A stretch of 64,000 nucleotides of DNA from NCBI GenBank assembly GCA_044225505.1, contig JBGAIN010000018.1, forward strand, positions 5,353 through 69,352, given 5' to 3'. Each line of letters begins with the position of its first letter. The stretch's first letter is position 1. The notes beneath the pieces were generated by a model, which did no database searches, had not been told where the DNA came from, and saw only the letters and a program-made list of their open reading frames with translations. The stretch comes from Limisphaerales bacterium. GTDB taxonomy: Bacteria > Verrucomicrobiota > Verrucomicrobiia > Limisphaerales > SIBE01. The translations under genes were made by a program, and so were the position numbers. Of this stretch, positions 40,382 to 61,400 are shown one piece after another.

Positions 40382-41863
40382 TTACTTTAGGCGATAAAAA
40401 ACACAACGCTCCTCAATTGGCAAAGGACCGTCTACAAAGGTCGCTCCCTCCCCGTCCGCAGCGTTTACAGTCACAGAACCGACACTCATCCAACTCTGAC
40501 CGTCAGTTGACCGAAGCACGTGATAACTGCCGGGAGTGGCATAAACTCGTAACTCGAACGGCCCAGCGGCAGCACCAGAAGCGATTTTCAATCTTGGTAA
40601 AATCTGCACTGCAACCCCTGCATTTTGAAGCACAGCGGCAGCAACGTTAACCGCGAGATTTCCAGCAGGAGCGGTCAACAGGCGCAGCGGATTGCCAACC
40701 AAGTCCAAATTGGAGAGGTTGGGCGCGTCCAACCACAAATTCGTCAGCTGATTGAATGAAAGATTTAATGTTTTTAACGCGACTGAGCCTGGTGGAATCC
40801 GAAGATCCTTTAACTGGTTAGCGCTCAAGTCTAAAGACTCCAATAAGGGCAAGTCTGCCAAAAAGCTCGCGTCTGACAGCCGATTGACTCCCAGCGATAA
40901 TGTCGAGAGGTTCAGCCCCACCGGGAGCTTCAACTGGGCAAGGTCATTCGCCCGCAGGTTCAACTCTTTCAAACTTGGCAAGGAGGTAAGAAAGGCGAAA
41001 GCGCGAAGCACATTGCCGCCAAGGTCCAAACTCTCCAATCGGTCCAAAGAGGCATCGACATTAAATTCGGACAGCCGGTTGTTGGCAAGATTCAAACGGA
41101 CTAATCCTGGGCACGCTTTGATAAACCCAAGGTCGCCAATGCGATTCGCTCCTAAATTTAGGTCCTGGAGGCTTACTAGACCGGCCGGAAGCCCCAAACT
41201 GGTCAGACCACACCCGTAGAGGTTTAACGACTGAAGGCTGCCCCAACCTTCCAAAAATCGAAAATCGGAAATCGTATTTCCTGCCAAATTGAGCGATCGC
41301 AATCCCGTTGCTCCCTTCAACGATTCGCCGCTCACTAAAGGATTGAATGGCAACTCAAGCTTCCGAAGTGCCGGAAGCGTAGCGGCGAAAGAAACCTCCG
41401 TGAAATCATTATTCCCCAAATAAAGCTCCGTTAATCGAGATAAACCGGCCGGTAACACTAAACTGGACAAGTTGTTATATCCTAAATCCAGAACTGACAG
41501 GTTAGCCAAGTCATCGGGAAGACTTACTGACCGCAACTCATTGATAGTCAGCCGAAGAACAGTCAAACGGGTTAATCCGCGCGGCAATACCAAATCCTTT
41601 AAGCCCGTCCCCTGCAACTCCAGTGACGTTAGGTTGACCGCATTCTCCAAACCCACAAGGCTCTGAATAGGAACAGACCGAACGCTCAGACTCTGCAATT
41701 GTTCGATCTCAGACTTACCAATTTCCCCCGATGGCAGTCCTAAAGTATTGAGAATTGCCTGTTTTAGGTTGGGATCAGCAATCGAGACGGTCTGTGCAGA
41801 ATTAGATAGGCTGCTGCCGAACAACCACGCGAATAAGGGCAGCCAGTAACGAACGGTTTTCAT
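40382..41863 (-). CDS. Secreted leucine-rich-repeat protein (internalin-like) with C-terminal FYR-type domain
   Basis: Signal peptide from ATG 41863 (MKTVRYWLPLFAWLFGSS); many LxxLxLxxNxL repeats; tail ...RSTDGQSW...FVD...FYRLK. Confidence 0.88.
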   Translation of the reverse strand: MKTVRYWLPLFAWLFGSSLSNSAQTVSIADPNLKQAILNTLGLPSGEIGKSEIEQLQSLSVRSVPIQSLVGLENAVNLTSLELQGTGLKDLVLPRGLTRLTVLRLTINELRSVSLPDDLANLSVLDLGYNNLSSLVLPAGLSRLTELYLGNNDFTEVSFAATLPALRKLELPFNPLVSGESLKGATGLRSLNLAGNTISDFRFLEGWGSLQSLNLYGCGLTSLGLPAGLVSLQDLNLGANRIGDLGFIKACPGLVRLNLANNRLSEFNVDASLDRLESLDLGGNVLRAFAFLTSLPSLKELNLRANDLAQLKLPVGLNLSTLSLGVNRLSDASFLADLPLLESLDLSANQLKDLRIPPGSVALKTLNLSFNQLTNLWLDAPNLSNLDLVGNPLRLLTAPAGNLAVNVAAAVLQNAGVAVQILPRLKIASGAAAGPFELRVYATPGSYHVLRSTDGQSWMSVGSVTVNAADGEGATFVDGPLPIEERCVFYRLK

Positions 41864-42091
41864 ACGAATTCTACACCCGATAAGCCACAACCCATGATGT
41901 GTCAAGGCCACCTCCCCAAGCGTATCTTCTGAATCCTATCAGAACCGCCACACCAAGAACAGTTAACACAAGTTCTCGGAAACCTTTGAACTCGTGTGAG
42001 TAAATGTGCGAATGGTGCGCGCCGTCGTAGCAGCTTCCCTTTTATGGTGATCTCGGGCGATCGCTCAAACCCGGTATCGCGAAGGCACCGA

Positions 42092-42617
42092 ACCGGGTAA
42101 ATCTGAGCGGTCGCCCGGCCAGCCCCCCTAAGGCCCTCATACGGTTCGAGCCTCTGCAAAGACCGCCCTCAGAGGAGGTAATCCGGCAATCAGGATCAGA
42201 GAGGAGACGATCAAGAGACTGACCGATACTGCTTCGGCCGAAAGGTCCGAGTGGAGCTGATGGGATAGGCGCGCCAAGCAAAGCATCGCCGTTTCTCGAA
42301 GTACTACCTGTATAAAGAGGGTCGTAAGGGTTGGCGGCTCTTCGGACCTTGATATGGTGTTCAATCGTGGTCTGGGCCGTGCGGTAGACTTTCAGCACGC
42401 CCTCCAGACCTTGAGGGTTCTTAGTTGGAGCCGAAAAGGCACCGGTGGGATCGGCGGAGAAGTAGCGCTTGCGAATCCAGGTAGAGGATTTGTTGGGATG
42501 TTCCCGGCGCGCCCAGCGCCGGAGCACTGCGTGCACGTAGAAGTCTGCTTCCCCAACGACGCGTTCGGAGACGGCGTGCCGATGATGATTGGCCCACCTT
42601 CGTAGAAGCGGATTGCG
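42092..42617 (-). mobile_element. Decayed, 5'-truncated group II intron (maturase domain X remnant, broken DV, DVI)
   Basis: NPLLRRWANHHRH...RWARREHPNK..WIRKRYF...HIKVRRAANPYDP, then frameshift to YFEKRR; downstream GAACCGTATGAGGG|CCTTAGGGGGG (DV halves with centre missing) and CTGGCCGG-GCGA-CCGCTCAG-ATTTACCCGGT (DVI-like end). Confidence 0.85.
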
Positions 42618-42711
42618 AGATCGCAACGGGACCTTTGAGCCCAAGATCGTGCCCAAAGGGCAACGGCGCTTCGAAGGTTTCGATCAGGCCATTCTCAGCC
42701 TCTATGCGCGA
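42616..42711 (+). mobile_element. IS256-family transposase fragment (32 codons)
   Basis: Manual translation RDRNGTFEPKIVPKGQRRFEGFDQAILSLYAR matches the conserved IS256/mutator segment; no start or end of gene around it. Confidence 0.8.
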
Positions 42712-43043
42712 GAACTGTCGATGCTTGCGAGTGTGAGACTTCTTTGACCCTACCGTCCGATTCAAGCGCCGGGACCCGGAGTGAGGCTTCCAGGCCGGCT
42801 ACATTGTCTGGGGGGCTTTGGACCTTTGGCAGTGACACTGGTCGCCCGCCAAACGCCCGCTCCCATAGAATACCCGCTGCGAAAAGCAGGACCGGATCAC
42901 GAAAAATCGTGTCCGGCAGCGATTTATGTAGTTCATAGTTCATTTCTTACTGACCGACGCGTCGCGAGACAATTTGTCACCAGCACTGCCATTTGCCGAT
43001 TTCGTGGAGAAAAGGCGAGTAAGGTCACCATCCAAACGGTCTT

Positions 43044-43153
43044 AACAGCGTGCAAACAGCCTGATGACAGCGTGCAAACAGCTTCGTGATGCGGTTCACA
43101 TCGAGTTCTCATCGGGTTCTCATCCTGCTTAGATCGGGTTCTCAGTGCGATCA
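43044..43153. repeat. Degenerate 11-bp-period tandem array (10 units)
   Basis: aacagcgtgca/aacagcctgat/gacagcgtgca/aacagcttcgt/gatgcggttca/catcgagttct/catcgggttct/catcctgctta/gatcgggttct/cagtgcgatca. Confidence 0.75.
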
Positions 43154-43747
43154 ACGGGAAGAACTGGAGTGTAACAATCCGCGAAATCGGAATTGTCACG
43201 GCTGCAATTCGGCTGAAATGGATGACACGAAAATCTGACCGAAGCGTCGCCTACAGCTTCACCCCGAGAGCGCTTCTTTTCGTGGGAGAGCGGCAGTGCA
43301 TTCGTACACTCCCGCTCACTTCCCGAGATGCCTAATCGACCAGATCTGCCATGACCCTAAGGCGCAACTCGCCTGTCACGACCGGCAGCAGTTTGGGACT
43401 ACGGCCCGACCGTAAACAGAAAAAAGGATTTACACCCCCGCCTCGTAACCAGCTTAAATTGAGCCACATTTCGTAGGGCCCGACGCTGGTTCGCGGACCG
43501 AACATTGGTTAAAGGAAAGCCGATGGTCTGGTGTTGGGGTCGGCCCACCTGGGGTCTCCCTGAGGAAAACGCCAGGGTAGACCTCTTTAGAATCTGCTTG
43601 ACGGCCTATATCGGGATGGCTAGAACCGATAGATTATAAGGACTTCCTGTCCACACAGGGCGAATCTCTGTAGGCGGAGTGGCGGGAGCAATCGACAGTA
43701 GCATCGATGACTTGACTTGGTCGGTTTAATAAACAACCTAACGGCCT

Positions 43748-44644
43748 ATGCGTATTCAAACTTCGTGCCTGAGGGCTTTGAGCCTGGCACTTCTTACGAC
43801 AGCGGTGGTCCCCATCTGTAACGCTCAGATCACGCTGGGAGATCTTCCCAACAGCGCGAATGTCACACTCTGGCTTAAGGCCGATACCGGAGTTTCCACA
43901 GACGTTAACGGCGTAACGCAATGGCAGGATGGCTCCAATAGTGGCTTTCACTTGAGCGCTTCTGGAGGTCCTCAACCGCAGCTCATCGCCAACGGGCAAA
44001 CTGTCGGGCTGCCTGTAAACCTTCCGGTGGTTCAGTTTGACGGAGTGCAAGACGTGCTCTCGCGGACTGGAGTGGACGGGACTTCGTTAGTTTCGGCGAA
44101 CTCCGGCGCATTTTTCGTCGTCCTGAAGGCAAACTCACAGGACGTCAAGAGTATCCTCGGATGGGTGGACGACAATGCCCCTGGCAATGGATACAATAAT
44201 TTGGTCCAAGTGGCGGAGAACGGCAGCTTGATTTATCTCCACGGTGACGCAGGCCAGGATTTAATATCTGCTCCGAAACCCGGGGATTGGGCGACAGCGT
44301 GGCACGTCTTATCGGTGACGCGCACTGGCTCCTCCGGAGATATCAGAGTGGATGGCCAGAGCTTGAGTCCGTCGGGAAGCTTCAACGGCAGTGGGATTTT
44401 CAGTGCGAATGGGACCTTAGCCGTCGGCAGTTTGAATGCCGGTGAGAATTGGGGCGGAAATATTGCTGAAATCCTCGCTTACAATTCTGGTAGTATCGAC
44501 GTTGCTGGAGTGGAGAACTACCTCGGGACAAAATATGGATTGACCCCAGTACCTGAGCCGAGTGAGTACGCAATGATTTTCGGTGTTATTTGCGTGCTGG
44601 GAGCGTTGGTAGTCCGGAGCCGCCGGGTGGCTGTCGTTAGCTAA
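43748..44644 (+). CDS. PEP-CTERM sorting domain protein with LamG/concanavalin-like domain
   Basis: Signal peptide; LWLKADTGV...WQD...VVQFDGVQD..GNIAEILAY; C-terminal VPEPSEYAMIFGVICVLGALVVRSRR. Confidence 0.92.
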   Translation: MRIQTSCLRALSLALLTTAVVPICNAQITLGDLPNSANVTLWLKADTGVSTDVNGVTQWQDGSNSGFHLSASGGPQPQLIANGQTVGLPVNLPVVQFDGVQDVLSRTGVDGTSLVSANSGAFFVVLKANSQDVKSILGWVDDNAPGNGYNNLVQVAENGSLIYLHGDAGQDLISAPKPGDWATAWHVLSVTRTGSSGDIRVDGQSLSPSGSFNGSGIFSANGTLAVGSLNAGENWGGNIAEILAYNSGSIDVAGVENYLGTKYGLTPVPEPSEYAMIFGVICVLGALVVRSRRVAVVS

Positions 44645-44666
44645 TAAAACGACGGTACGTTTACTC

Positions 44667-44704
44667 TTCCAGGCTTCTGGCGTTAACGAACGCCGAAGCC
44701 GGAA
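44667..44704 (+). terminator. Hairpin after PEP-CTERM gene (terminator or processing stem)
   Basis: ttcc-a-ggctt-ct-ggcgtt-aacg-aacgcc-g-aagcc-ggaa; no clear U tract. Confidence 0.4.
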
Positions 44705-44720
44705 TCAGCAAACCAATGTT

Positions 44721-45953
44721 GTGGACAAAAATGCAGGATCCCTTGCGGGTAGTCATTGCCCGCTAAGATCTTTGTTTCGGAGATTTTGTTGTTTCGTTTT
44801 GCTGTTGAGTTTGAGTAAGGCAGGCAGCCGCGCGCAAACGGCTGCCTTTTCCAGGGAGGGGTTACCCTCGGGAGTTATCAATCCCAACCCCGGAATTCAT
44901 TTGGGCCGTTTCGATCTTCATGGGGGATTCGACACTAGCGTCGCGTACGACGACATGGTTGAGAATACCATCGATGGAACTGAGAGCGACGTAACGCTCA
45001 CGTTTTCTCCACGTGCGTCGATCGAGACCGATGGCCCGAACGCGCGAAATCTGAAGGTGACTTACCGCCCGAGTTACTTAGCCTTCATAGATCATTCTCG
45101 CCTTAACAATCTCAATCACTTCGGCACGGTGGATATCAAATGGCCATTGAATCGGCTCACACTCAGTCTCCAGGAGAATGTTTCTGTAGCGTCAGTGGTC
45201 GTTCGGGACATTAGCGATCGAGCTGAGCAGGCTCGGTATCTGACCGAAGCGACTGCGGATTACGAGATTAGTCATCGGAGCTCCTTAAATGGCGTTTTTG
45301 ACTACGAACGGTCGGACTACGGCGGAAACTTCATTAACTACCAACAGTTTACGGAACAACTGAGGCTAGATTATCATTTCGGAGACCGGCTAACGGTGGG
45401 AGGAGGATTTTCAGCGACGCAAGTCGTCGTAGATCAAGGGCCTGGGCAATCATCAGAAGGGCCGCTAGTCCGTGCCACACTTACCTTGAACCCTGAATTT
45501 AGCGTCACAGCGCAAGTTGGCATCCAATGGTTGCACTTTGATAGCGGGGCTCCAGTGTCGCTGGCGGAAACTTTTAACGTGACGGGACTTTACCAAGTCC
45601 GTCCCGGAACATCGATTTCACTGAACGCCCGTCGTGCGGAACAGCCGTCGGCATTGCTCCTTGGACAGAATTATACCGACACTGGTTTTTCTCTTGATCT
45701 GAACCAAGTGCTTTCCAGACGCTTGGGACTGACCTTCATTGGAGGCTACACCCAAGCCGATTATTATGCGACAGATGTCGGCGTTGTAACCCAACGTTCA
45801 GATAGCTATTACTTTGTGCGGCTGACACTTAACTGGGCAGTAACAGACAAGTGGACCACGGGCGTTTTCGTCGATCGAAGCTCCAATCAATCCAGCGGAA
45901 GTTTCAGCTACGACCACAATGTCGCGGGAGTGCAGGCCTCTTGGACATTTTAA
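44721..45953 (+). CDS. Outer-membrane beta-barrel protein (EPS/PEP-CTERM-associated type)
   Basis: Signal peptide, alternating amphipathic strands with aromatic girdle, C-terminal GVQASWTF. Confidence 0.78.
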   Translation: MDKNAGSLAGSHCPLRSLFRRFCCFVLLLSLSKAGSRAQTAAFSREGLPSGVINPNPGIHLGRFDLHGGFDTSVAYDDMVENTIDGTESDVTLTFSPRASIETDGPNARNLKVTYRPSYLAFIDHSRLNNLNHFGTVDIKWPLNRLTLSLQENVSVASVVVRDISDRAEQARYLTEATADYEISHRSSLNGVFDYERSDYGGNFINYQQFTEQLRLDYHFGDRLTVGGGFSATQVVVDQGPGQSSEGPLVRATLTLNPEFSVTAQVGIQWLHFDSGAPVSLAETFNVTGLYQVRPGTSISLNARRAEQPSALLLGQNYTDTGFSLDLNQVLSRRLGLTFIGGYTQADYYATDVGVVTQRSDSYYFVRLTLNWAVTDKWTTGVFVDRSSNQSSGSFSYDHNVAGVQASWTF

Positions 45954-46008
45954 GCTGACCAGAAGCAATCCTTGAATTTCCCTCACGGATCTGTATACTC
46001 CCGCCCCA

Positions 46009-46887
46009 GTGAAGGGCATCATCTTGGCCGGCGGGGCAGGTTCTCGTTTGTATCCACTTACCCGAGTGGCAAGCAAGCAACTTCAGCCAGTTTACGATAA
46101 ACCAATGGTTTATTATCCCCTCTCGACACTGATCGAGAATGGGGTTCGAGAGTTCTGTCTGATATCGACTCCACACGACCTGCCTCGATTCTCCCAGCTT
46201 CTCGGGGATGGAAGCGCCTGGGGAATCTCGATAGAGTATCGCGAGCAAGCCAAGCCTGACGGGATCGCGCAGGCTTTTCTCATCGCCGAATCGTTCATCA
46301 AGAACGAGTCTGTGGTGCTGATCCTGGGGGATAACGTATTCTACGGCGGTGACACATTTCCCCGGGCTTTTTCGGAGTTTCGGGATGGGGCGACGATTTT
46401 CGGATACCCCGTCAAGGATCCTGAACGCTATGGTGTGGTGGAGTTCGACGGCCAAGGCAGGGCGATCTCGATCGAGGAGAAGCCCAAAGCGCCGAAGAGC
46501 GATTATGCCGTGCCGGGACTCTACATATTTGACAATCAGGTTGTTAACATTACTAAGAGCCTGAAGCCGTCGGCGCGTGGAGAGCTTGAAATAACGGATC
46601 TAAATCTTGCTTACCTCAAGCGAGGCCAGTTGAAGGTCTACCGACTCAATCGCGGGTTTGCTTGGCTGGACGCTGGCACGAGCAGCAGCCTTCACGAAGC
46701 TTCCGCCTACGTGCAGACCATAGAAAAGCGGCAAGGCATCAAAGTCGGATGTCCTGAAGAAGCCGCTTTTCTGCGGGGCTTTCTCACCGTTGATCAGCTA
46801 GAAAGTCTTTTGACAAAGATTCCCAATTGCGAATACCGCGAGTATCTTGCGGGCGTTGTTGCCGAAGCGCGACGACCCCACCGTTAA
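46009..46887 (+). CDS. rmlA: Glucose-1-phosphate thymidylyltransferase
   Basis: MKGIILAGGAGSRLYPLT, VYDKPMVYYPL, PSARGELEITD, WLDAGT. Confidence 0.96.
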   Translation: MKGIILAGGAGSRLYPLTRVASKQLQPVYDKPMVYYPLSTLIENGVREFCLISTPHDLPRFSQLLGDGSAWGISIEYREQAKPDGIAQAFLIAESFIKNESVVLILGDNVFYGGDTFPRAFSEFRDGATIFGYPVKDPERYGVVEFDGQGRAISIEEKPKAPKSDYAVPGLYIFDNQVVNITKSLKPSARGELEITDLNLAYLKRGQLKVYRLNRGFAWLDAGTSSSLHEASAYVQTIEKRQGIKVGCPEEAAFLRGFLTVDQLESLLTKIPNCEYREYLAGVVAEARRPHR

Positions 46888-46893
46888 CTCTGT

Positions 46894-47847
46894 TTGACCT
46901 CTATGATTGTTCTTCTCGGTGCCAGCGGCTACGTTGGCGAAGCCTTTGCCAGACAACTCCGTGAGCGCCAATGGGCCTTTACTGCTCTGAGTCGCAAAGA
47001 GCTCGATTACACGCGCATGGAGACCCTGTTGGATTTCCTGCGGAAAGTGAAGCCCGCGTTTTTGATTAACGCTGCTGGATACACCGGCAAGCCGAATGTC
47101 GACGCGTGCGAAACAGCTCGAGCGGATACCCTTTGGGGAAATACGCTTTTCCCTCAGGCCGTCGCAAACGCCTGTTTGGTCGCTGGCGTGCCTTGGGGGC
47201 ATATCTCCTCGGGATGTATCTACACAGGCGCCAAGGTCGAGCAAGGGGGCAAGCTTCATGTCGAGCCGGATTTGATGAAGCCGGAGCTGGCCAGACTGGT
47301 AGACGAGCACCCGGAACGAATTCACGGTTTTACGGAAAACGACCCGCCAAATTTCTCGTTTCGATCGCCGCCATGCAGTTTCTACAGCGGCACGAAGGCG
47401 TTGGGAGAGGAGGTAGTGGCTGGGGTTGGCCAGTCCTATCTTTGGCGGTTGCGTATACCTTTCGACGAGTTTGACAACCCGCGGAATTACCTCACTAAGG
47501 TGCAGCGCTATGCAAAGGTTTACGTCAACGTAAACTCACTATCGCATCGCACCGACTACGCTCGGGCTTGCTTAGACCTGTGGGAACGACGCGCGCCATT
47601 CGGGATCTACAATGTCACCAACCCCGGTTACGTGACGACCCGCCAGGTAATCGATCGTATCCAGCGAACCCTCAAGTTGAACCGCTCGTTCGAGTTCTGG
47701 ACGGATGACAGCGAGTTCTATCGTTTGGGCGCCAAAACGCCGCGTTCGAATTGTGTTCTGGATGTCTCAAAACTGTTGGCCACAGGGGTTAAAATGCGAT
47801 CCGTCGAAGCGGCCGTTGATGATGCTCTGAAGAATTGGCAAAAATAA
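46894..47847 (+). CDS. rmlD: dTDP-4-dehydrorhamnose reductase family protein
   Basis: [38 protein letters not shown]. Confidence 0.85.
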
Positions 47848-49162: not shown

Positions 49163-51211
49163 TTAGTCCAACTTTGCGGGCGCAGATCCACTGCTGACGT
49201 TCGCCGCCTCACTGCGGACCCGATAGAACTTCATCGAGGCACTAGAGGCACTTTCATCTTTGAGCTCGTCGACATTCGAAAAACTTCCAACTTCCACCCA
49301 GTTTCTCAGATCTTGCGACGCTTCCAGGTGATGAATCCAGAGCCCGCCTTGCATATTGTTCGGCAGAAGATGAGCGAATTGAACGGATTGTGCGGTGCCA
49401 GTTTCGGCGGACCAACGCAGCGTGTGAAGTCCAGTCACTCTCACATTTGCTCCCGCCGTCTTCGAGCCTTTACCCGCAACGATGAGGCTGAACGATTTTG
49501 CATCGGACATAGACGGAACTCCATTGTCCGAAACGCTCACCGTAATCAAGTTCGTCGACGAAGGATCCGCCTTGCTCAACCGCCAAGTAAGAACGCCAGT
49601 GGTCGAGTCCAGCGACATACCAGAGGGGGCCGACACCAGCCGATAGGTAAGTTTGTTCGCGGGCAAGTCCGAATCGGTTGCGGTTAGAGCAAACATGAAG
49701 ACTTGTCCGGCGCTAATCCGCTGTTCCCCGATAGGCGTCAACACTGGCGCACGGTTGGCCTCGCCCACGACCACCGTGAAAGTCGCTGTCGCCGAGAGCG
49801 CTGGAGTGCCGTTGTCGCTGACTCGCACCGTAACCACGTTCGTACTGAGCCCTTGGAGTTCCGTCGGCACCCAGGTCAACGTCCCGCGGATCGTGTCTAC
49901 GGTCATACCGGCCGGACCGGAGACAAGCGAGTAAGCCAGCACATTCGCGGGGAGATCTGCGTCGGTTGCCGTGAGATTGACCAACAGCGTGCTTCCTTCG
50001 GTTACAAATTGGTTGCTGACGGCCGCCAGCACGGGTGCCGAGTTCACATCTTTGACCGTGACAACAAATGTCTTGGTGGCAGTCAGTGCTGGACTTCCGG
50101 TGTCAGAGACCTGCACGGTGACAAGCGCTGAGCTCGGGCCCTGGGCTTCGGTCGGAGTCCAGCTGAACACCCCGGTCGCAGAGTTCACACTCGAACCTTG
50201 AGGCCCGCTCACCAGCGAGTAGATCAGCCCAGTCGCTGATTCTGCGTCAGTTGCGGTCAATTGGACGGTAAGCGCGGTTCCTTCCGAAATCTGCTGGTCA
50301 GCAATCGTTGCGAGGACAGGAGCGGTATTCAATTTCCTCACCCCTATGTTGAAACTGGTTTGCGCGGTCAAGGGCGGTTGTTGATTGTCGCTGACTTGCA
50401 CCGTTGCAGTCGTAACTGCGATGTTCATGCTACCAACAGCCGGTTTCCAGGAAAACATACCCGTCGCGGCATCCACTGCGGCACCCGCGGGTCCACTCAC
50501 CAAGGTGTAGGTCAAATTGTTTGCAGGGAGATCAAGATCATTGCCGATCAACTTGACGGACAAAGTGTTCCCTTCAGCCACAGTCTGGTCCGCGACTGCG
50601 GCCAGTGTCGGCGGGGTGTTCGCCTCCGTGACCGAAACGACAAACGTGGTGATTGCCACCGATGAAGCTATCGAACTGTCGTTCACCTGTACTGAAATCG
50701 TGTAGCTGCCTGGACCTTGCGCTTCCGTTGGAGTCCAGGAAAAGACGCCGGATGCAGGATTCAAGGCCGCCCCCGCAGGACCGCTCACTAGAGCGAAGGT
50801 CAGTGTCTTGGTCGGATCCGGGCTCGCGACCATCAATCCGAAGGAGAGCGGATTGCCTTCTTGGACTGTTTGAGTCGAAACGGGAACAAACGAGATTCCG
50901 GTCGAAGGAACTGTGTAGGTTAAAAGGTTAGAGGGCTGACTTTCAGTCCCGGACGTAGAAACGGTCGTGGCGAATGCGAAGTAGCTCTTTCCGGCGACGA
51001 GGTCGAGGGTGCTAGTCGTGCCCGCGGAGGCGACTCGATTTGTAGCTCCGCGACCCACTTCGCCGTAATACAGAGCATAGTAACTAATATCAGAATCCGA
51101 ACTCTGATCCCAAGCAACTGCTACACTCTGCCCGGCCCGAACAGCAGAGAGGCCCACGCATAAACACAACAATACCAGCAGTAACGACAGATTCGTGGAA
51201 ACGCTCTTCAT
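49163..51211 (-). CDS. Secreted adhesin-like protein: FN3-like domain + five cadherin-like/Ig repeats + C-terminal FYR-type domain
   Basis: Signal peptide; five ~95-aa repeats N.APVL...Q.V.EG..L...ATD...L.YSLVSGP.G.....TG..SW.P; tail LEASQDLRNW...KD...KFYRVR. Confidence 0.85.
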   Translation of the reverse strand: MKSVSTNLSLLLVLLCLCVGLSAVRAGQSVAVAWDQSSDSDISYYALYYGEVGRGATNRVASAGTTSTLDLVAGKSYFAFATTVSTSGTESQPSNLLTYTVPSTGISFVPVSTQTVQEGNPLSFGLMVASPDPTKTLTFALVSGPAGAALNPASGVFSWTPTEAQGPGSYTISVQVNDSSIASSVAITTFVVSVTEANTPPTLAAVADQTVAEGNTLSVKLIGNDLDLPANNLTYTLVSGPAGAAVDAATGMFSWKPAVGSMNIAVTTATVQVSDNQQPPLTAQTSFNIGVRKLNTAPVLATIADQQISEGTALTVQLTATDAESATGLIYSLVSGPQGSSVNSATGVFSWTPTEAQGPSSALVTVQVSDTGSPALTATKTFVVTVKDVNSAPVLAAVSNQFVTEGSTLLVNLTATDADLPANVLAYSLVSGPAGMTVDTIRGTLTWVPTELQGLSTNVVTVRVSDNGTPALSATATFTVVVGEANRAPVLTPIGEQRISAGQVFMFALTATDSDLPANKLTYRLVSAPSGMSLDSTTGVLTWRLSKADPSSTNLITVSVSDNGVPSMSDAKSFSLIVAGKGSKTAGANVRVTGLHTLRWSAETGTAQSVQFAHLLPNNMQGGLWIHHLEASQDLRNWVEVGSFSNVDELKDESASSASMKFYRVRSEAANVSSGSAPAKLD

Positions 51212-52689: not shown

Positions 52690-52701
52690 CCCGACTCGCC
52701 T

Positions 52702-52878: not shown

Positions 52879-52905
52879 GCCAGGTGGAACGACGGGCTTT
52901 GTGCC

Positions 52906-53713: not shown

Positions 53714-54007
53714 CTCTTGACGGTAGCAACCCTGCGCGTTTTGTCAGCAGCGAAGCCGCTTAAGCGAATCTGCCAAACGCCAGTGTTCTGATTCCCCGCT
53801 CGCTTGACTTGAATCCGCCGGTGGAGTGAGCGATGGTAAGTCGCACAAGGTACGAATGGGAGTCCGCGGATCCCCGTCGTCTGAGTACGGGGGGCTAGGA
53901 TTCATCTTTCAAGGGAACGCCGGTCCAGTAAAACTGTGCGTGTGGGTATGAGTTCGGGCGACTCAGACGTGACTCGGCTCAAACGTCCGCAGTGCGACGC
54001 AGGAAAT

Positions 54008-54316: not shown

Positions 54317-54345
54317 TGCGATGTCCTGAGGCCGGGAAGAGCCGA

Positions 54346-54831
54346 TCAGTCCCGAAAATTCTGAAAGCTTAGCGTGACAGGAAAATCCTGGCCTCGGACT
54401 GTGCCCATGACCGCTTGGAGATCGTCTTTGCTCTTGCCCGTGACCCGAATCTGATCGCCCAGGATTTGTGTGGTCACCTTGAGCTTCGTGTCGCGAATAA
54501 ATGCCGTCACCTGTTTTGCCACCGGCCCCTCGATGCCCTGTTTGATCTTAATAATCTGTCTCGCATGTCCTAGAGGCGAGATGTCCGGATCTCCCTTATC
54601 GACGTTCTTGAGGCTGACCTGACGTTTGGCGAGTTTTCCGATGACGATCTCCTCGAGAGCCTTGATCTTGAACTGATCTTCGGCCGACAGCGTGATCTGA
54701 TCCTTCTCGAGCGTAATCTCTGCTTTCGACCCTTTGAAGTCGAAGCGGTTCGCCAATTCCTTCTTGGCTTGATTCACGGCATTCTCAATTTCCATGGAAT
54801 TGACCTGAGAAACAATATCGAACGACGGCAT
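54346..54831 (-). CDS. yajQ: YajQ family nucleotide/c-di-GMP-binding protein
   Basis: MPSFDIVS, ELANRFDFKGS, IQG-like QILGDQIRVTGKSKDDLQ, FQNFRD. Confidence 0.95.
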   Translation of the reverse strand: MPSFDIVSQVNSMEIENAVNQAKKELANRFDFKGSKAEITLEKDQITLSAEDQFKIKALEEIVIGKLAKRQVSLKNVDKGDPDISPLGHARQIIKIKQGIEGPVAKQVTAFIRDTKLKVTTQILGDQIRVTGKSKDDLQAVMGTVRGQDFPVTLSFQNFRD

Positions 54832-54947
54832 GCGCAGAGCCTATCGAGACTCGGCTGAAATGGAAATAGCCAAAATGCCCTCGCTTGCGAATCGACACCC
54901 GCTGCAAAATCGCTAAGCTCCTTGCCACTCGTCGGTTCCAAGAAGCG

Positions 54948-57308
54948 ATGCGCAGGCAGATTCTCAGCCGATTGGTCCTGGTTCTTACCGCTGGTGCCGC
55001 GGTAATGTTATGGCTACTTCACGGAACCCAGCAGACTCAGCTTCGGCCCCCAGCCGAGCCGCCTCTCTCCCCCACCCTCGTCCGCGCGGAACCGGAGGAA
55101 GCCCCACTCCAACAAGCGCGCGAGCTCGAAAAAAAGGCTAGAGACTTGGACCAATCCATCTGGGCCAAGGAGGTCCTGGCCATACAGCACGAAGCCGTCT
55201 TTGCCAAGCTTTGGGATGATCTCAGGACCAATACGAATCACCTCGAAGTGCTAAGCCAATTCTCGTTTGGCGAACTGGTTCTGACTGACGGTTGGGAACC
55301 GACGCTGACAGAACCTTTCTTTGCCGTGGCGCAAGCCGTTGGCGCGCCCCGCCGATTCACGGCTCAGGAGTGGCGCATGTGGATCAAGAACTGGCTTGAC
55401 GAAGGATTTCGGCTCGACCAATTCGAGATTCGCCACGTCGCTTTTGACGCGAACGTCGACGGAACCGTCCGATCAAAGTTCACCATGCGCGCGGATGTGG
55501 TTCACGTCCAGAACCCCGAGCGCTATGTCTTTCGCGGCGAACTCACCGTCGATTGGAAAGAATCGGCGACGCCGACTATTCCTCCGTTGCCTGAACTCAT
55601 TCGATTCACCCGGTTGGAGCGTATGACAACACAGAAGGCTCCAACTTTTGAACCAAGCTTCACCTATGAAATCCCTAGCCTGTCATCTGCGACGCTCCTC
55701 GGACCGCTAATTGTGTATGACCTCAATGGGGACGGCTTATCAGACATCGTGCTGGTCGACCAGAACCTTGCTCTCCGCAACCAAGGAAATGGTGATTTTC
55801 AGCCGACGCCGCTCTGCACGGAACCCTCTCCGGCGCTAAAGACAGGTGTCCTCGCGGATTTCACAGGCGACGGGGCGGTAGACCTCCTGGGGGCGGATGT
55901 GGACGGATTGCTCCTTTGGACAGGCGACTCGGCGGGGCGCTTTACGACCCCAAGTCAACGGATTCATTTCACCGTTGCTGGTGTTGCCAATCCGTCCGTC
56001 TTGACGGTCGGTGACGTCGATGGAGATGGCGATCTGGATGTCTGGCTAGGCCAAGACAAGCCCCCTTACCAATCTGGGCAGATGCCGACGCCTTATTACG
56101 ACGCTAACGATGGGTTTCCCTCGTTTCTCCTGCTTAACGACGGCCACGGTGATTTCACAGATGGGACAGCCGAGGCAAACCTGGCCGCCAAGCGATTCAG
56201 GCGTGCCCATAGTGGATCACTTGTTGACGTGGATAACGACGGCGATTTAGACCTACTGGTCGTCAGCGACTTTGCCGGGGTTGATCTCTATTACAACGAT
56301 GGACGCGGACACTTCGCCGACGGAGCTCGCACGCTTGGCGAAACTCATCTGTTTGGGATGTCTCATACGTTCGGCGACTACGATGGGGATGGCACGCTCG
56401 ATTTTCTCGTTCTAGGAAAACACTTTTACGCCGCCGAGAGGTTGGACCGCCTAGGCTTGGGTCGCGAAGAGTTTTCCGAGCACCAAGCTATGCGATCGCG
56501 CATGGGCGCGGGCAATCGCCTCTACGGGAAGCTGGATGAGAATTGGCAATCGTTACGCCTTGGGGAAACCATTGTGAACTCGGGTTGGTCTTGGGGGGCG
56601 ACCAGCTTTGACTTTGATAACGACGGGGATCTGGATGTCTACGTTGCTAACGGAAACCAAAGCCGAGCGCTCAGCCTGGATTACGAAAGTCAATTTTGGC
56701 GTCATGACATTTATCTTGGAACTTCCAGCCCGAACCGAGGCTTGGACGAGTACTTCCGGACTTCATTGAGCCAAGTTGAACGAGAAGGTCTATCGTTCGG
56801 CGGATATCAAAAAAATTGCCTCTTTCTTAACCTGGGATGGCAATCATTTCGGGAGATTGGCTTTCTGGCAGGCGTTGCGCTGGAACGAGACTGCCGCAAC
56901 GTCGTCAGTGAAGACGTGGACCATGACGGACGCATGGATCTGATCGTCATCGATACCGTCCTCGGACCACAGAATCGTCAAACGTTGCATGTCCTTTTGA
57001 ATCGATGGCCTTCGTCCAACCGCTGGATCGGCTTTAATTTTCGGGAAACCCGCCCGGGCTATGCCCCAGTGGGAACCAGAGTCACTCTCCAAACCGTCAG
57101 CGGTCGACAAATTCGACACATCGTCACCGGTGATTCGTATCGCTCTCAACATGCGAACACGGCTCATTTTGGTCTTGGAGATGCGGAAAAAATCCTCAAC
57201 GTCCAGATTCGCTGGCCGAACGGGCAGGTCGAAGAGCTGAGCCATCCAGGCCTTAACCGTTACCTAACCGTGCTACCGAGCACGCCGACCGCGCCTCCGA
57301 ATCCCTAA
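54948..57308 (+). CDS. CRTAC1-family protein: FG-GAP repeats + ASPIC/UnbV domain
   Basis: N-terminal TM; repeated DxDGDGDLD motifs; GWSWGATSFDFDNDGDLD; C-terminal GDSYRSQ..AHFGLG...IRWPNG. Start at ATG 54948. Confidence 0.88.
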   Translation: MRRQILSRLVLVLTAGAAVMLWLLHGTQQTQLRPPAEPPLSPTLVRAEPEEAPLQQARELEKKARDLDQSIWAKEVLAIQHEAVFAKLWDDLRTNTNHLEVLSQFSFGELVLTDGWEPTLTEPFFAVAQAVGAPRRFTAQEWRMWIKNWLDEGFRLDQFEIRHVAFDANVDGTVRSKFTMRADVVHVQNPERYVFRGELTVDWKESATPTIPPLPELIRFTRLERMTTQKAPTFEPSFTYEIPSLSSATLLGPLIVYDLNGDGLSDIVLVDQNLALRNQGNGDFQPTPLCTEPSPALKTGVLADFTGDGAVDLLGADVDGLLLWTGDSAGRFTTPSQRIHFTVAGVANPSVLTVGDVDGDGDLDVWLGQDKPPYQSGQMPTPYYDANDGFPSFLLLNDGHGDFTDGTAEANLAAKRFRRAHSGSLVDVDNDGDLDLLVVSDFAGVDLYYNDGRGHFADGARTLGETHLFGMSHTFGDYDGDGTLDFLVLGKHFYAAERLDRLGLGREEFSEHQAMRSRMGAGNRLYGKLDENWQSLRLGETIVNSGWSWGATSFDFDNDGDLDVYVANGNQSRALSLDYESQFWRHDIYLGTSSPNRGLDEYFRTSLSQVEREGLSFGGYQKNCLFLNLGWQSFREIGFLAGVALERDCRNVVSEDVDHDGRMDLIVIDTVLGPQNRQTLHVLLNRWPSSNRWIGFNFRETRPGYAPVGTRVTLQTVSGRQIRHIVTGDSYRSQHANTAHFGLGDAEKILNVQIRWPNGQVEELSHPGLNRYLTVLPSTPTAPPNP

Positions 57309-58220
57309 TTACTTGCGGGTACAACGCTCTTGCATCCAGAGAACATCGGGATTGCTGGGCGACGGCACATTGAGCGGTAAATCTGTCTTTCCTAACTTCG
57401 GCATCGTCCGATTGTCTCGCCACTTCTTGATTTCAGAATGACCGTCAGCAAAAGAGAAGCCGCCGGCCTTGTTGTGATAACTGGCCGGATAGTCGACGAT
57501 CCTAAAGGCGTTCGGCTTGTCAGCATACCCGGCCATATCGGTCACGAAATAGCCGTCATTGATGCTGTCTTCCCGTTCGTCCAGAAAGACCCATGTCGAT
57601 CCTGGCCCGGGATCGTTCATCGCGCCTTGTTTTAGGTAAACCATCCATCCACTGCCGCTTTTAGGCCGCCAGGATCCTGACGCATCCCAGCCAGGCCCTC
57701 CTACCCAGCAGCTCATGGACATACTGCGAATGCGCGGCACCGTCTGCTTTTGTCGAGTGACCGCAGTACTCTTGTCTGCGGGACAGTGCCAGATCCCCAT
57801 ACTCCCCCCGCCATACGGCCAGAGCGGGCTCGTTTTATTATACTTCTCTGCATTCCAGTTGTTTTCGTCGGACTTGTTGTTGAGGGTAAGCCAATTTCCT
57901 CCGGTCCAGTTCGGCAGAGCATTGCCAAAGAATGGGCCGGCGCCTGGACCCGCCGGATAACCTGGCGGCGTCCAATTGGCTGCCCCCACCAAATTATCGT
58001 TGTTGTCATCCGAATATAACCTCCAAGCCAGAGTCAGCTGCTTGTGATTGTTCATACACATGATGCCTTGGGCCTTCGTTTTCGACTTGGCCAAAGCCGG
58101 CAGAAGCATTCCCGCGAGAATGGCGATGATGGCGATCACCACAAGCAACTCGATCAAAGTGAAACCCGCGCCAGAATATGACTCGGAAGGAGCGCGGCCT
58201 CTAGGTACGAAGTAACGCAT
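57309..58220 (-). CDS. Prepilin-type N-terminal cleavage/methylation protein with H-X9-DG C-terminal motif
   Basis: [25 protein letters not shown]; [12 protein letters not shown]. Confidence 0.92.
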
Positions 58221-58489
58221 AAGAGTCCTTTGTTAGGTCTACGGGTTGAGAATGCTCGTTCTTAGCAGGACACAACGCTAATTTCAACTGTGCGTCTGCG
58301 TGCACACTTGCCCTCTTGCACCGTGAGACTCCAGTTCACATAATCGCCCGAGGACGCGCGGTTTCCTCCCCGTTCTCCCAATCACGCTCCTTCTGGACTG
58401 GGATACTCCTTATCGCCGTGTCGCATCCCCTCGAAAAAAGAAGCGTTCAACGTCTAAGGCCCTTTGCGGAGCCGTCGCCGTGACGCTGA

Positions 58490-61400
58490 TCAAGGGAATG
58501 GCGTCTCCAACCGGACGCGATAATAATAAGGCCCTGGCGAACGCGCATTCGTGTCGACCACCCGACTGATCTCACCAACCGCGGCAATTCTTGGCACGAC
58601 AGTAACAAACGCTCCATTGTCCGGAGTCGTGGCTCGTTCGAGGGCGTAGAACTTGCCCGGCACGGTGGACCATTGAATTTCCATTTGGCCATTAGCCTGC
58701 GGCAGCGCCGAAGTGATGCGGAGCAGCGACGTGGCATCCTTTGGATCGGTTCCAGCCTTAGCCTCCATCAAGTCAAGAAAGCCATCGCCATCGAAGTCCG
58801 TGGATTTTGATGCACCCGATAAGTCACCAAACTGCGCAAGCTCCCAGAAGTCGGAGATACCATCGTTGTCGGCGTCGTCTGTCTCCAAGTTAAAACGAAC
58901 CACTTGGTAGCGGCGGCCTTGAGGATTGAAGTGGTGCAAAAGGAGGAGCTCCACCGGTCTGTCCAGGGCGGCCGAGGCCACTCGATCGATTCGCACCGCG
59001 ATTGTATCCCCATCGTCTCGAGTTGGATAACCCTCCAGTCCAAACAGGGCTGTATCAACCGCCGGCTTGGCGACATCGTAAGGAACCCACGCCGTCTGGT
59101 CCACAACGGTCAGACCGTCCGGCCCTCTCGCAACGACTCGGTAACTGAATTTGGGATTAGAGTCCGTCAACCCTAAGTCGCCGGCGTTAACCGATAACAC
59201 CAAGACGCTATTGTTAAACGGCGCGGTCTCACGCTCATTCGCTGCGTATATATTCACGAATCCTCCGGCAAACAGCTCATCGGTGAGAGTGTCTCGCACC
59301 ACTGTCAAAAAGACGTCGTTCGCCACTTCCGGATTGCCTAAATCAAAGTCAGCCAACTCGCCGTCACTCCCATTTGCCAAGACGTAATCGATCACCCCGT
59401 CATGATCGACATCGATGACCACCTCCAGATCTACCAGGAAACTTTGCGGCGTCGTCCAGGATCCGGCTGTCACAAGCCCAAAGAACAACGTGCTGTTTTG
59501 CACGCGGTGTTGAGTTCCAAAGTCGCTCGCGGCGCCCACCGCCAAAACGTCTGCCGCTGAATAGATGGGGTCACCCAAGTGCTGATTCGAGCTAACGGCA
59601 CCCAGCTGAAAAACGGACAAAAGCGGCTTCGCCAATGCAGCGGTTCCGCGAACCGGAAGGATCGCGTCCACCAGGTTAGTTCCTAGCGGCAGGCCCACTT
59701 CGCTCGCCGTGACTGAATAGTCCGCTCCTGCCTGAAGGATGGCGTGGTAAGGCAGATGTATCGCTACATTCGTCCCTTCAAAGTGAATCTGCCCACTGAC
59801 CTCAAGGAGCGTATGTCGTGGCAGGCCATTCAGGCGAGTTGGGGTGGTGGGATCACCGCTCGCGCCGAAGCTTGAGGGATCCGCTCTTAACTGAAATGGA
59901 AGAGACACCGAGCCTAGCGGCGGGACGATGGCGGAGGGACTGATCGGAACTAATTCCGCCTCTGCGCCGTTCAACGTCGATTGCACGGAAACGCGTAATG
60001 CAACCGCATTGGTTCCGTGGTTGGTTAAGTGAACGAACCGTGTCTCGTTTATCGCATTCGTTACGGTCAGCGCACCAAAAGAGAGAGAGACCAATCCCTT
60101 CCCGTTCTCCGCCGACGCGGTCAGCACCGTCCGTGCCGCCCGATCGACCTGCAACCGTCCAGCTCCAACCCGTGATTCCGGGTAGGGAGTCGCATCCTCG
60201 TCCTGCGTCGGCGCGGCCGTATTCATGAGAGCCGCTTTGATCTCTTCGACACTCCAGCGCGGATGCAATTTCTTGAGCAACGCCGCAGCGCCCGCCACAT
60301 GCGGTGTGGACATCGACGTGCTGCTCGCACTCACTCCGTTGGTTCCGGTGCCCATGGACGCGGAGATAATGGCTTCACCAGGGGCCGTCAGTTCGGGCTT
60401 AAGGAGACTCCCTGGCGAGCCAGTCCCCGCGAGCGAGTTGAAGTCCGATAGTTGATCGGTCAGCCCGGAGCCAGGCAATGTCAACGAGGCGTCCAATCGA
60501 ACCGGTAAATTCGAGCGGAACAGAGCCCAGAAGATTCCATCCGCCTGTGAAACCATGACCGCTGGGATTCGCGCGGCCGCGCTCTCTCCAGCCATCGGAA
60601 ACGGGGCTTCCCCGGTATTGTTGACCATAATCACAGCTATGGCTCCGGCTTCCTCGGCACGCGCAATCTTTTCGGAGAACAAGCACGTTCCTCGATCGAT
60701 CAAAGCGATTTTCCCTTTCAAGTCGGCGGCATTGGTCAACGCGTCGCACGCTTTGCTGGGCGCTGCCAAAACCACGAAGTTCGTCAGCGGCCCAATCTCG
60801 GCCAGCGGCGGCGTAAAGCTCGCTTCGACCGCTTCGTAGAGCCCCGCCACTCGCTTGGGGGAGAGAATTTCCAGCGCCGGACTGGTAAATCGAGCATCCA
60901 AGGAATTAGCGACACTCACTGCACGCTCGGCCACTCCCGGCGCCGCGATCGTATAATAAATATTGCCGCTATTCCCAGCAGCCACTACCACCACGCACCC
61001 CAGTTCCGCGAGTTGATTCGCGGCATTTAACACCACGTCATCCGGAGAAACCTGGCCAAAGGAGCTGCCCAACGACAGATTCACAACGTCAAGGTGATCC
61101 TCAAAACTACCATCGCCGTTGGGATCCGCAGCCCACTCCAGAGCATCGAGGATCAAATCGGTCGGACCATCGCAGCCAAAAATCTTCAGAGCGTAAATCT
61201 GCGCTTTCGGGGCAATGCCCGGGCCAACCAAGAATTGACTCATCTCTAACGAGGGGGAGTACAAGCCGCCATACGTGCTTCCATTCGTTAGCACGCCATA
61301 CCCCGCGGCTATGCCTGCGACGTGCGTTCCATGACCATTGCAGTCGAGCGGGTCCGGATCGGGAAATGGGGTGTAGCGCGCCGAGTCAGAGGACGATGGA

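Follow-up and report, generated by a model that had tools for sequence, protein, structure and literature searches.

The window, that is, the whole stretch of 64,000 nucleotides of a Limisphaerales contig that was analysed, encodes three proteins with related C-terminal tails, referred to here as FYRV tails. The features concerned are:

40382..41911, minus strand: LRR protein P0001, carrier 1, read from translation (LRR_4 E=4e-43, LRR_8 E=4e-24)
40385..40600, minus strand: LRR tail, truncated FN3-like FYRV domain, P0001 residues 438-509, ending CVFYRLK-COOH
43748..44644, plus strand: LamG-like protein with a PEP-CTERM signal (VPEPSEYAMIFGVICVLGALVVRSRR), context, found by regular expression and direct reading (Laminin_G_3 E=8e-5)
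49163..51211, minus strand: cadherin-like protein P0002, carrier 2, with a signal peptide, an N-terminal FN3, five He_PIG/Big_9/cadherin-like repeats and the tail
49166..49453, minus strand: cadherin-like tail, degenerate FYRV unit, P0002 residues 587-682
58490..62092, minus strand: S8 subtilase P0003 with PA domain, 1200 aa, carrier 3 (Peptidase_S8 E=2e-46, PA E=4e-20)
58493..58729, minus strand: S8 tail, truncated FN3-like FYRV domain, P0003 residues 1122-1200, ending YYYRVRLETPFP-COOH
58730..58876, minus strand: two bacterial TSP3-type calcium-loop repeats (DADNDG...DFDGDG...AGTDPKD), directly upstream of the S8 tail (Pfam TSP3_bac, residues 1099-1120)

The C-terminal ...[FY]YR[LV][KR] motif is common to the LRR, cadherin-like and S8 tails, and the translations match the strings quoted in the original prediction, at the positions given there. 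P0001 ends in ...LKIASGAAAGPFELRVYATPGSYHVLRSTDGQSW...TFVDGPLPIEERCVFYRLK, with the stop one residue past FYRL, and P0003 ends in ...LLRITSALPQANGQMEIQWSTVPGKFYALERATTPDNGAFV...RVVDTNARSPGPYYYRVRLETPFP, the only canonical ...P-COOH end among the three. Degenerate and carrying either an insertion or part of an additional unit, the cadherin-like tail (P0002 C-terminus ...HHLEASQDLRNWVEVGSFSNVDELKDESASSASMKFYRVRSEAANVSSGSAPAKLD) is the weakest family member; its core, PNNMQGGLWIHHLEASQDLRNW...MKFYRVRSEA at about 49205-49363, has a partial B-C strand segment before it and a 17-residue extension past FYRV.

The tail had been predicted to sit on exported proteins with unrelated passengers, and this holds for the window, where all three N-termini read as signal-peptide-like and the Pfam passengers differ (LRR_4/LRR_8 versus He_PIG/Big_9/Cadherin versus Peptidase_S8 with PA and TSP3_bac). 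The true start of the LRR ORF is likely an internal ATG at 41863, which would give a canonical signal peptide (MKTVRYWLPLFAWLFGSSLSNSA, followed by QT). P0002 carries the signal-peptide-like segment MKSVSTNLSLLLVLLCLCVGLSAVRA, followed by GQ, and the N-terminus of P0003 (...SRTFLLTALLVARLQS) is similar in kind but less canonical. Pfam assigns He_PIG (E=1e-38), Big_9 (E=2e-26) and Cadherin (E=1e-14) to P0002, with a weak fn3 match at residues 27-94, and its layout of signal peptide, FN3 and terminal FYRV recurs in the family members P0014 and P0018, in both of which the N-terminal fn3 was confirmed. The N-termini of P0081 and P0087 also resemble that of P0002, as judged by reading alone. The cassette of TSP3 repeats and tail found in the S8 protease is also present in P0005, L001/L002, P0047 and P0166. 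The S8 gene is followed directly by a prepilin-type N_methyl gene.

The similarity of the tails, which are 20-28% identical to one another, is not demonstrable from the three sequences alone. BLASTP between pairs of tails either aligned nothing or returned E=8, and within the window neither phmmer nor leave-one-out tests with two-sequence HMMs linked them (E=3-45). The similarity becomes significant against an independent alignment of 199 family units, built without the LRR and cadherin-like tails, to which hhalign aligned the S8 tail with P=99.6% (E=5e-24), the LRR tail with P=93% (E=3e-7, 61 aligned columns, score 34.3) and the cadherin-like tail with P=83% (E=9e-6, score 29.0). The best of 40 shuffles each scored 12.3 for the LRR tail and 11.3 for the cadherin-like tail, the other controls (shuffles and beta-rich segments of the same proteins) scored at most 14.0, and P was at most 2.3% for all controls and shuffles. 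The three tails thus form one homologous domain, as had been proposed. In hmmsearch the S8 tail reached E=1e-14 to 1e-19, and the LRR tail ranked second among the window ORFs for independent tail HMMs (E=0.006-0.02). A chance resemblance, with a beta-rich composition and a short FYR motif as all that the tails have in common, would fit the non-significant pairwise BLAST, phmmer and two-sequence HMM results as well as the E=0.4 or worse of the cadherin-like tail in hmmsearch alone. Such a coincidence is hardly credible in view of hhalign scores that reach 2.4-2.8 times the highest score among 40 shuffles of each tail and exceed those of other beta-rich segments by a wide margin, the consistent AlphaFold2 (AF2) fold of the tails, and significant pairwise matches to bona fide family members: BLASTP aligned the LRR tail with P0169 (E=5e-7; not fully independent, as P0169 was recruited by the LRR-tail-containing profile A4) and the cadherin-like tail with unit 1 of P0018 (E=1e-4). 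For the S8 and LRR tails, chance is largely refuted.

What the tails represent is a truncated form of the fibronectin type III domain, so far uncatalogued, and not a fold of their own. The unit spans ~65 residues with six strands (A, B, C, C', E and F), has no G strand and ends a few residues past the F strand ...R[FY]YR[VLI]. The AF2 model of the S8 tail (pLDDT 85.8, pTM 0.77) has six strands, the last being YYYRVRL, and its best-ranked Foldseek matches in the PDB are FN3 domains (TMq 0.57-0.66); the low-confidence model of the cadherin-like tail (pLDDT 64) contains strands B, C, C', E and F plus a disordered insertion. A search of PDB sequences with the family profile retrieved the 'Fn3-like protein' 3mpc of Clostridium thermocellum (E=6e-5) and FN3con (E=3e-3), and hhalign aligned the family with classical FN3 units (P=98%, E=3e-13), the classical profile running ~20 columns further, which corresponds to the G strand. 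Classical FN3 (PF00041) and the FYRV tail share the beta-sandwich topology of strands A to F, the B-strand W, the C-strand Y-x-V/L and the F-strand tyrosine corner YYR-V. The motif from which the domain was first recognized (W, Y-x-L, [FY]YR[LV]) is largely the inherited signature of FN3 strands B, C and F. Both kinds of unit form tandem arrays, with a period of 75-80 aa for FYRV and about 90 for FN3, and the G strand is missing in every FYRV unit. Pfam fn3 gave no match to the three window tails at E<=0.1.

The claim that the domain is uncharacterised was borne out: no Pfam-A or NCBIfam model covers the unit, the window tails gave zero matches to either library at E<=0.1, and a literature search found no description of it. 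A four-tail profile, from which the LRR and cadherin-like tails were left out, matched 5,028 proteins at E<=1e-3 among 1.84 billion representatives, and classical FN3 proteins make up roughly a third or more of the top matches. The top 150 of these were ranked by summed score, which favours multi-copy proteins, and the position statistics given below, drawn from some 80 cluster representatives plus a dozen proteins with a single copy, do not sample the 5,028 without bias. All three named genome loci, and the only match with an organism name, belong to Verrucomicrobiota. A clear hydrophobic N-terminal segment was seen in only 16 of the 42 family matches starting with Met, by a crude test, and many gene starts are probably miscalled or truncated.

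The passengers of the wider family are unrelated as well, comprising proteases and LRR, cadherin/Big-like, LamG/NHL, MBG and CotH-LTD proteins. Several carriers are S8 or proprotein-convertase-type proteases, and bacterial PPC domains (PF04151) are C-terminal beta-sandwiches of secreted proteases that sometimes occur in two copies; the tail might by analogy be a pro-domain that assists folding or secretion and is cleaved after export, with no anchoring role. This is very improbable, as most carriers are not proteases (LRR, cadherin-like, LamG, NHL, MBG, CotH-LTD), arrays reach 12 units, and a Pfam scan of the window proteins gave no match to PPC.

Some proteins have one FYRV domain, often preceded by TSP3 calcium loops, and others have 2-12 units joined head to tail. 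Among short-period arrays (<=83 aa), 45/49 end within 8 residues of the protein C-terminus; of the remaining four, two have a last unit at the end that escaped detection, and in the other two the protein stops 10 residues past the anchor. The single-copy examples are C-terminal without exception (12/12; P0005, L001/L002, L005, P0164-P0169 and two adjacent genes in L009). The tail is thus nearly always C-terminal across the sampled family, as predicted. Internal FN3-like copies had been named as evidence against a C-terminal signal; such copies do occur in the arrays of 2-12, but the objection holds only in part, as these always run to the C-terminus, unlike long-period classical FN3 arrays in the same match list, only 4/49 of which end within 8 residues of it. 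The free end is also distinctive. Proline is the last residue in 52 of 80 carriers, a bias that classical FN3 lacks, compared with 6.7% Pro overall, and 69/80 have 3-5 residues past FYRV, whereas internal linkers have Pro at +4 in only 16/160 cases. In 51 of 75 arrays the last unit resembles the last unit of another protein more than the internal units of its own protein, which may stem from orthologous proteins in the sample. The units lacking a G strand, the 3-5 residue ending and the terminal proline together point to selection on the terminus itself. These features bear on the view that the tail has no address function and is an ordinary FN3-type spacer or ligand-binding (e.g. glycan-binding) module, spread at the 3' ends of genes by duplication and domain shuffling and terminal by happenstance. 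Clear homology to classical FN3, which many bacterial enzymes use as a linker or for binding, speaks for such a module, as do tandem multiplication like that of other structural repeats and the strong divergence of the window tails. We nevertheless regard it as rather unlikely, because the classical arrays show no C-terminal restriction and the FYRV units have uniformly lost the G strand, besides the fixed 3-5 residue ending and the terminal proline.

We tentatively favour a role as a C-terminal docking or retention module, a reading that falls somewhat short of an even chance. After Sec export, the open F-strand edge of the folded terminal unit and its conserved free end, for which FYR-phi-x-phi-x-Pro-COOH is typical, would tether the passenger to the cell envelope, and extra upstream copies would form a stalk that sets the passenger at the N-terminus off from the surface. 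The docking role, its partner and the stalk are inferred, whereas the analysis shows the homology, the fold and its truncation, the C-terminal position, the proline bias and the export signals of the window proteins. Such an arrangement would be comparable to the stalk and anchor of surface proteins that are anchored C-terminally. The functional analogy that we favour is with the GW modules, SLH domains and choline-binding repeats of Gram-positive bacteria and with dockerins, which are likewise C-terminal modules with unrelated passengers and variable copy number and which serve in docking rather than catalysis, although their folds are unrelated to FYRV and the FYRV hosts have a diderm envelope. 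A pure address tag would not normally come in tandem arrays, and two of the three window tails lack the ...P-COOH end, the LRR tail being short and the cadherin-like tail extended and degenerate; both points count against docking.

The strict position at the extreme C-terminus, the conserved free end and the unrelated passengers, enzymes included, would also suit a cargo tag for outer-membrane translocation, for instance through a T2SS-type system or an undescribed PVC translocon, possibly removed afterwards like the CTD of the type 9 secretion system (T9SS). Verrucomicrobiota are not known to have a T9SS, yet their large folded enzymes must cross the outer membrane. The prepilin-type gene next to the S8 gene fits such a tag, but genes of this kind are very abundant in the lineage. 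In Vibrio, a PDZ domain of the T2SS protein GspC is reported to be implicated in substrate secretion (PMC12369372), which provides a lead only. Similarity to T9SS CTDs (type A, TIGR04183/PF18962 Por_Secre_tail; type B, TIGR04131/PF13585) extends to size and fold, both being beta-sandwiches of 70-90 aa, and to placement at the very end of proteins that are exported by Sec and carry unrelated passengers, among which enzymes and adhesins are frequent. The T9SS is, however, a Bacteroidota system with PorU/PorV-type machinery and cleavage, while the three named loci and the one named match of the FYRV family are verrucomicrobial. Membership of the T9SS CTD family was rejected, as T9SS CTD models do not match the tail, and T9SS CTD structures are absent from the top 50 Foldseek matches. 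FYRV tandem copies are common, whereas single-copy signals such as the T9SS CTD do not form arrays, and no cleaved translocation signal is known to form arrays of 2-12 copies. A translocation tag is accordingly improbable, though less so than a PPC-like pro-domain.

The docking module would operate alongside a second, classical C-terminal sorting system in the same genome, indicated by the LamG-like PEP-CTERM protein at 43748-44644, and the coexistence with PEP-CTERM sorting put forward in the original prediction is thereby upheld. Both marks lie at the C-terminus of exported proteins, but the PEP-CTERM/exosortase signal consists of a short motif, a transmembrane helix and a basic tail, whereas FYRV is a folded domain without a hydrophobic helix. 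A PEP-CTERM signal followed the FYRV tail in 0 of about 80 carriers. The PEP-CTERM protein of the window sits in the same polysaccharide gene region.

Three genes of the window encode exported proteins that end in a C-terminal domain of ~65 residues, referred to here as the FYRV tail:

40382-41911, minus strand: P0001, the LRR protein, 509 aa, with LRR_4 at E=4e-43 (Pfam)
49163-51211, minus strand: P0002, the cadherin-like protein, 682 aa, with a signal peptide, a weak N-terminal fn3 and five He_PIG/Big_9/cadherin-like repeats
58490-62092, minus strand: P0003, the S8 protease, 1200 aa, a Peptidase_S8 with a PA insert and a TSP3_bac repeat

The original prediction held these C-termini to be alike and proposed that they form a secretion or anchoring signal operating beside PEP-CTERM. 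The tail strings quoted for the three ORFs were reproduced by translation, and a signal-peptide-like N-terminus is found in each protein on direct reading. The C-terminal stretches (70-95 residues) gave no match at E<=0.1 in Pfam-A or NCBIfam, including the models for fn3, Por_Secre_tail, PPC and T9SS CTDs, and a description of the domain was not found in full-text literature searches.

Homology of the tails is not provable from the three window sequences by themselves. BLASTP of tail against tail gave E=8 or no alignment, and phmmer and two-sequence HMMs, used in a leave-one-out manner on the complete set of 916 stop-to-stop ORFs in the window, failed in every case to return the third tail at significance (E=3-45). 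An independent family was therefore built. A region homology search with the LRR tail recovered nothing, the word index being too coarse for so divergent a domain, while the S8 tail together with the TSP3 calcium-loop repeats directly upstream of it returned only P0003 itself and P0005, a 1333-aa NHL/LamG/Ig protein that carries the same TSP3+tail cassette at its end. Scanning genomes for related loci yielded two Verrucomicrobiota MAG loci with the tail, one encoding an 807-aa lamin-tail-domain/CotH-like ORF that ends in ...ARYYRLVIPAAP and the other a 1380-aa LamG/TSP3 protein that ends in ...EGYYRVRREQ. Two of the five loci from the TSP3+tail scan (Thiohalocapsa and Desulfobacteraceae) were set aside as TSP3-only, the scan having picked up TSP3 words.

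A profile (A3) of four tails, those of the S8 protease, P0005 and the two MAG loci, from which the LRR and cadherin-like tails were left out, matched 5,028 of 1.84 billion representative proteins at E<=1e-3, 292 of them at E<=1e-10 (HMMER). When the HMM was iterated unsupervised on all top matches, it was pulled towards the consensus of classical FN3, ...TTYYYRVRAVNAAG, and the matches were therefore divided by unit period and by the sequence past the F strand. Tail-type units drawn from the best 150 of the 5,028 matches make up a 199-unit family alignment. The LRR and cadherin-like tails were lost by hmmsearch with subfamily profiles (E=0.4-0.8 or worse) because the array subfamily ItWnSvaGqtYrLqYK dominates, and profile-profile comparison by hhalign was thus needed. 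Against the 199-unit alignment, hhalign placed the S8 tail at P=99.6% (E=5e-24, score 107.3), the LRR tail at P=93% (E=3e-7, score 34.3) and the cadherin-like tail at P=83% (E=9e-6, score 29.0). The controls, seven other beta-rich segments of the same three proteins plus shuffles, reached at most P=2.3% and a score of 14.0, and a second set of 40 shuffles each did not exceed 12.3. The three tails are thus similar beyond chance, as originally claimed, with the caveat that the cadherin-like tail is degenerate; a chance resemblance is barely credible. The cadherin-like tail also has a direct pairwise match to unit 1 of the family member P0018 (E=1e-4), and the LRR tail matches the family member P0169 at E=5e-7, a partly circular result given that P0169 was recruited by the tail profile A4, in which the LRR tail is a row. 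Defined as a match to the unit profile with [FY][FY]R[VLIA] near the stop codon of an exported protein, the FYRV tail is present in all three carriers, marginally so in P0002. The S8 tail has seven residues beyond YYRV, the last being Pro, and the LRR tail has one beyond FYRL. The cadherin-like tail is a marginal, degenerate family member: it seems to carry part of an additional B-C segment, and 17 residues extend it past FYRV.

The fold identifies the tail as a relative of fibronectin type III. AlphaFold2 modelled the S8 tail (12-row alignment) with six strands (pLDDT 85.8, pTM 0.77), the last of them, YYYRVRL, being followed by four residues to the chain end. The best-ranked Foldseek matches of this model in the PDB were FN3 domains (DSCAML1, integrin beta4, neogenin and Dscam; query-normalised TM-scores 0.57-0.66, probability 1.0), and no T9SS CTD occurred among the top 50. 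The relationship is also seen in sequence, though Pfam fn3 itself scored none of the three tails at E<=0.1: compared with PDB sequences, the family profile found 3mpc, an 'Fn3-like protein' (E=6e-5), FN3con (3e-3) and gp130. The cadherin-like tail was modelled with low confidence (pLDDT 64), with strands B, C, C', E and F along with an insertion that is disordered, and a Foldseek search with this model was uninformative.

The matches of the representative search form two populations. Classical FN3 arrays have a period of ~90 aa and continue from the F strand as ...YYYRV-A-x-N-x-x-G-x-S into a G strand. Tail-type arrays have a period of 75-80 aa, in which a unit of ~65 aa with the consensus NG-v-ltWnSvpG-tYrvqYk-nL---W--l-p-vtAtg-tts-td-----qRFYRV is followed by a Pro-rich linker of ~10 residues. 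The two kinds of unit are homologous (hhalign P=98%, E=3e-13), with the classical profile running ~20 columns past the end of the tail family. Given these extra columns, the short period and the presence of six strands ending after F, rather than the seven of the FN3 sandwich (A-B-E / C'-C-F-G), the tail is a truncated FN3 variant and not a canonical member; it is an FN3 derivative from which the G strand has been lost in every copy. Much of the motif on which the original prediction relied (the W, Y-x-L and [FY]YR[LV]) is the inherited signature of the FN3 B, C and F strands.

Position separates the two populations sharply. Arrays were sorted by unit period only, independently of the protein end and hence without circularity; this replaced a regex for the 'classical G strand', which had overlooked many YYYKV-type FN3 proteins. 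Among the 150 best-scoring cluster representatives of the 5,028 matches, a sample biased to multi-copy proteins, the last anchor lies within 8 residues of the C-terminus in 45/49 short-period arrays (<=83 aa), as against 4/49 long-period classical arrays. Two of the four short-period exceptions have one further undetected unit closing the protein (...VYRVVHVAPN and ...FFRICIKP), and the other two end 10 residues past the anchor. About a dozen single-copy tails that came by other routes are likewise all C-terminal, namely those of the three window proteins, P0005, the loci L001/L002 and L005, six short ORFs with a single tail (P0164-P0169) and the pair of genes at locus L009.

Some of these single-copy cases deserve comment in their own right. 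Three called genes at locus L008 (2072-10267) appear to be parts of one large gene of the S8 / P-domain / LamG type, the breaks probably being frameshifts of a long-read assembly; the last part, the 88-aa P0165, is the FYRV tail of that gene. At least one of the six short ORFs, and probably a second, is the C-terminal end of a longer gene broken by a frameshift, and some public 'small proteins' with the FYRV domain are gene fragments. L009 (1-1624; the same as L010), a soil metagenome contig, carries two consecutive co-oriented genes whose FYRV tails end in ...RKFYRARQ and ...KFYRVRSP.

The free end of the tail is itself conserved. In 69/80 carriers, 3-5 residues follow FYRV, and the final residue is Pro in 52/80, against 6.7% proline overall; of 160 internal linkers, just 16 have Pro at the corresponding position, +4. 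A typical tail thus ends in FYR-phi-x-phi-x-P-COOH, and none of ~80 carriers has a PEP-CTERM or other hydrophobic segment past it. Array proteins contain 2-12 units, and in 51/75 arrays the terminal unit is nearer to the terminal unit of another protein than to its own internal units, which suggests specialisation, although possible orthologues in the sample confound the comparison. The passengers are diverse (cadherin-like/Big_9/He_PIG, MBG, Ig, DUF11, subtilisin/proprotein-convertase, 'internalin A'-like LRR, LamG and NHL), and the organism names attached to the matches are Verrucomicrobiota or Verrucomicrobiia only.

Because the tail is restricted to the very C-terminus and the exported proteins that carry it have unrelated passengers, a docking or sorting element fits its behaviour better than a generic spacer. 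That the tail has no address function, being a spacer or a ligand-binding FN3, is not very likely; classical FN3 domains in the same match list are free of the C-terminal restriction. The tail shares with T9SS CTDs the position at the extreme C-terminus, but has no match at E<=0.1 to the type A (TIGR04183/PF18962) or type B (TIGR04131/PF13585) models, and its arrays of 2-12 units are common whereas T9SS CTDs are single-copy; on these grounds, and given the different lineage, membership was rejected. A function as a tag for export across the outer membrane is distinctly improbable, tandem arrays being hard to reconcile with a T9SS-CTD-like translocation signal that is simply cleaved off. The PEP motif, hydrophobic helix and basic cluster of PEP-CTERM are absent from the three tails (direct reading and regex scan), which excludes that assignment. 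The pre-peptidase C-terminal domain is likewise excluded, PF04151 having no match in a Pfam scan, and a PPC-like pro-domain is highly improbable.

Since tandem arrays are at odds with a cleaved signal, a docking or retention role is favoured, and we tentatively propose that the tail is such a module at the C-terminus of exported proteins. The terminal unit, whose F-strand edge is open and whose free end is conserved, would attach to a partner in the cell envelope, and the upstream copies would form a stalk. The resulting layout, with the passenger distal, the repeats proximal and the anchor last, would resemble that of C-terminally anchored surface proteins. A bolder reading, which we consider unlikely, sees in the truncated FN3 tail a tag, for cargo or address, that serves a surface-sorting or outer-membrane export route yet to be described in Verrucomicrobiota and related PVC bacteria; the tail would then be recognised by a dedicated receptor, such as an outer-membrane component of the PDZ or strand-complementing type.

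In soil, water and guts, Verrucomicrobiota and their relatives have a major part in breaking down complex polysaccharides. The display and release of their very large exported enzymes and adhesins are poorly understood, and no recognisable cargo signal apart from PEP-CTERM is known in these bacteria. A tail with a conserved free end that closes every secreted protein sampled offers a concrete, testable handle, and an HMM of the tail would provide annotation for a large uncharacterised share of these proteomes. On the modest reading, a well-defined six-strand FN3 subfamily without a G strand is missing from Pfam and NCBIfam and merits a model. If the tail were an address tag, it would do in phyla without a T9SS what the T9SS CTD does elsewhere, and the surface and secreted proteome of largely uncultured polysaccharide degraders would become definable by sequence.

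Two of the window carriers have further features. Residues 27-94 of P0002 form an FN3 straight after the signal peptide, of the type SV-(V/L)AWD-S-----(I/V)-(Y/G)Y-(L/V)YYG, and the same type opens the family members P0014, P0018, P0081 and P0087 (the last two by direct reading only), which are of unrelated lengths and have FYRV arrays at their ends; SP-FN3-...-FYRV is thus a recurrent architecture. Another assembly contains P0004, a copy of P0003 at 99% identity; the two differ in a pair of short patches in which small changes of length offset each other (P0003 residues ~513-600: ADGDILRSAVRSNLQV -> ADGIFWALFRSNLPV; FSSRGPSS -> FNSLAGTGS; also SGTSMS -> SSTSMS). The conserved SSRGP motif of subtilases is altered in the S8 protease of the window and the catalytic Ser is retained; the patches may reflect assembly noise or a degenerate allele.

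The genes around the carriers are mostly for polysaccharide synthesis (Bac_transf and RmlA/B/D-like), and an FG-GAP/ASPIC protein lies nearby together with these features:

57309-58220, minus strand: prepilin-type N-terminal methylation protein, matched only by PF07963 (N_methyl)
42042-42656, minus strand: GIIM-only ORF, with the group II intron maturase-specific domain at E=1e-11
43748-44644, plus strand: LamG-like exported protein with a clear PEP-CTERM signal, VPEPSEYAMIFGVICVLGALVVRSRR (regex scan)
44721-45953, plus strand: 410-aa ORF with a signal-peptide-like N-terminus, ending in ...AGVQASWTF, without a Pfam match

The prepilin-type gene is immediately downstream of the S8 protease gene and co-oriented with it, and direct reading alone points to a possible H-X9-DG-type motif in its product. 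PVC bacteria have very many genes of this kind, so the adjacency may be meaningless. The GIIM-only ORF probably represents what is left of an intron; it lies between the LRR gene and the PEP-CTERM gene. By direct reading of the three tails and the regex scan, the LamG-like protein alone has a PEP-CTERM signal; its gene lies within the polysaccharide gene region, with tail-bearing genes to either side. The 410-aa ORF directly downstream of it ends in an aromatic residue, as is typical of outer-membrane beta-barrels, and its product is possibly an outer-membrane protein associated with the PEP-CTERM protein.
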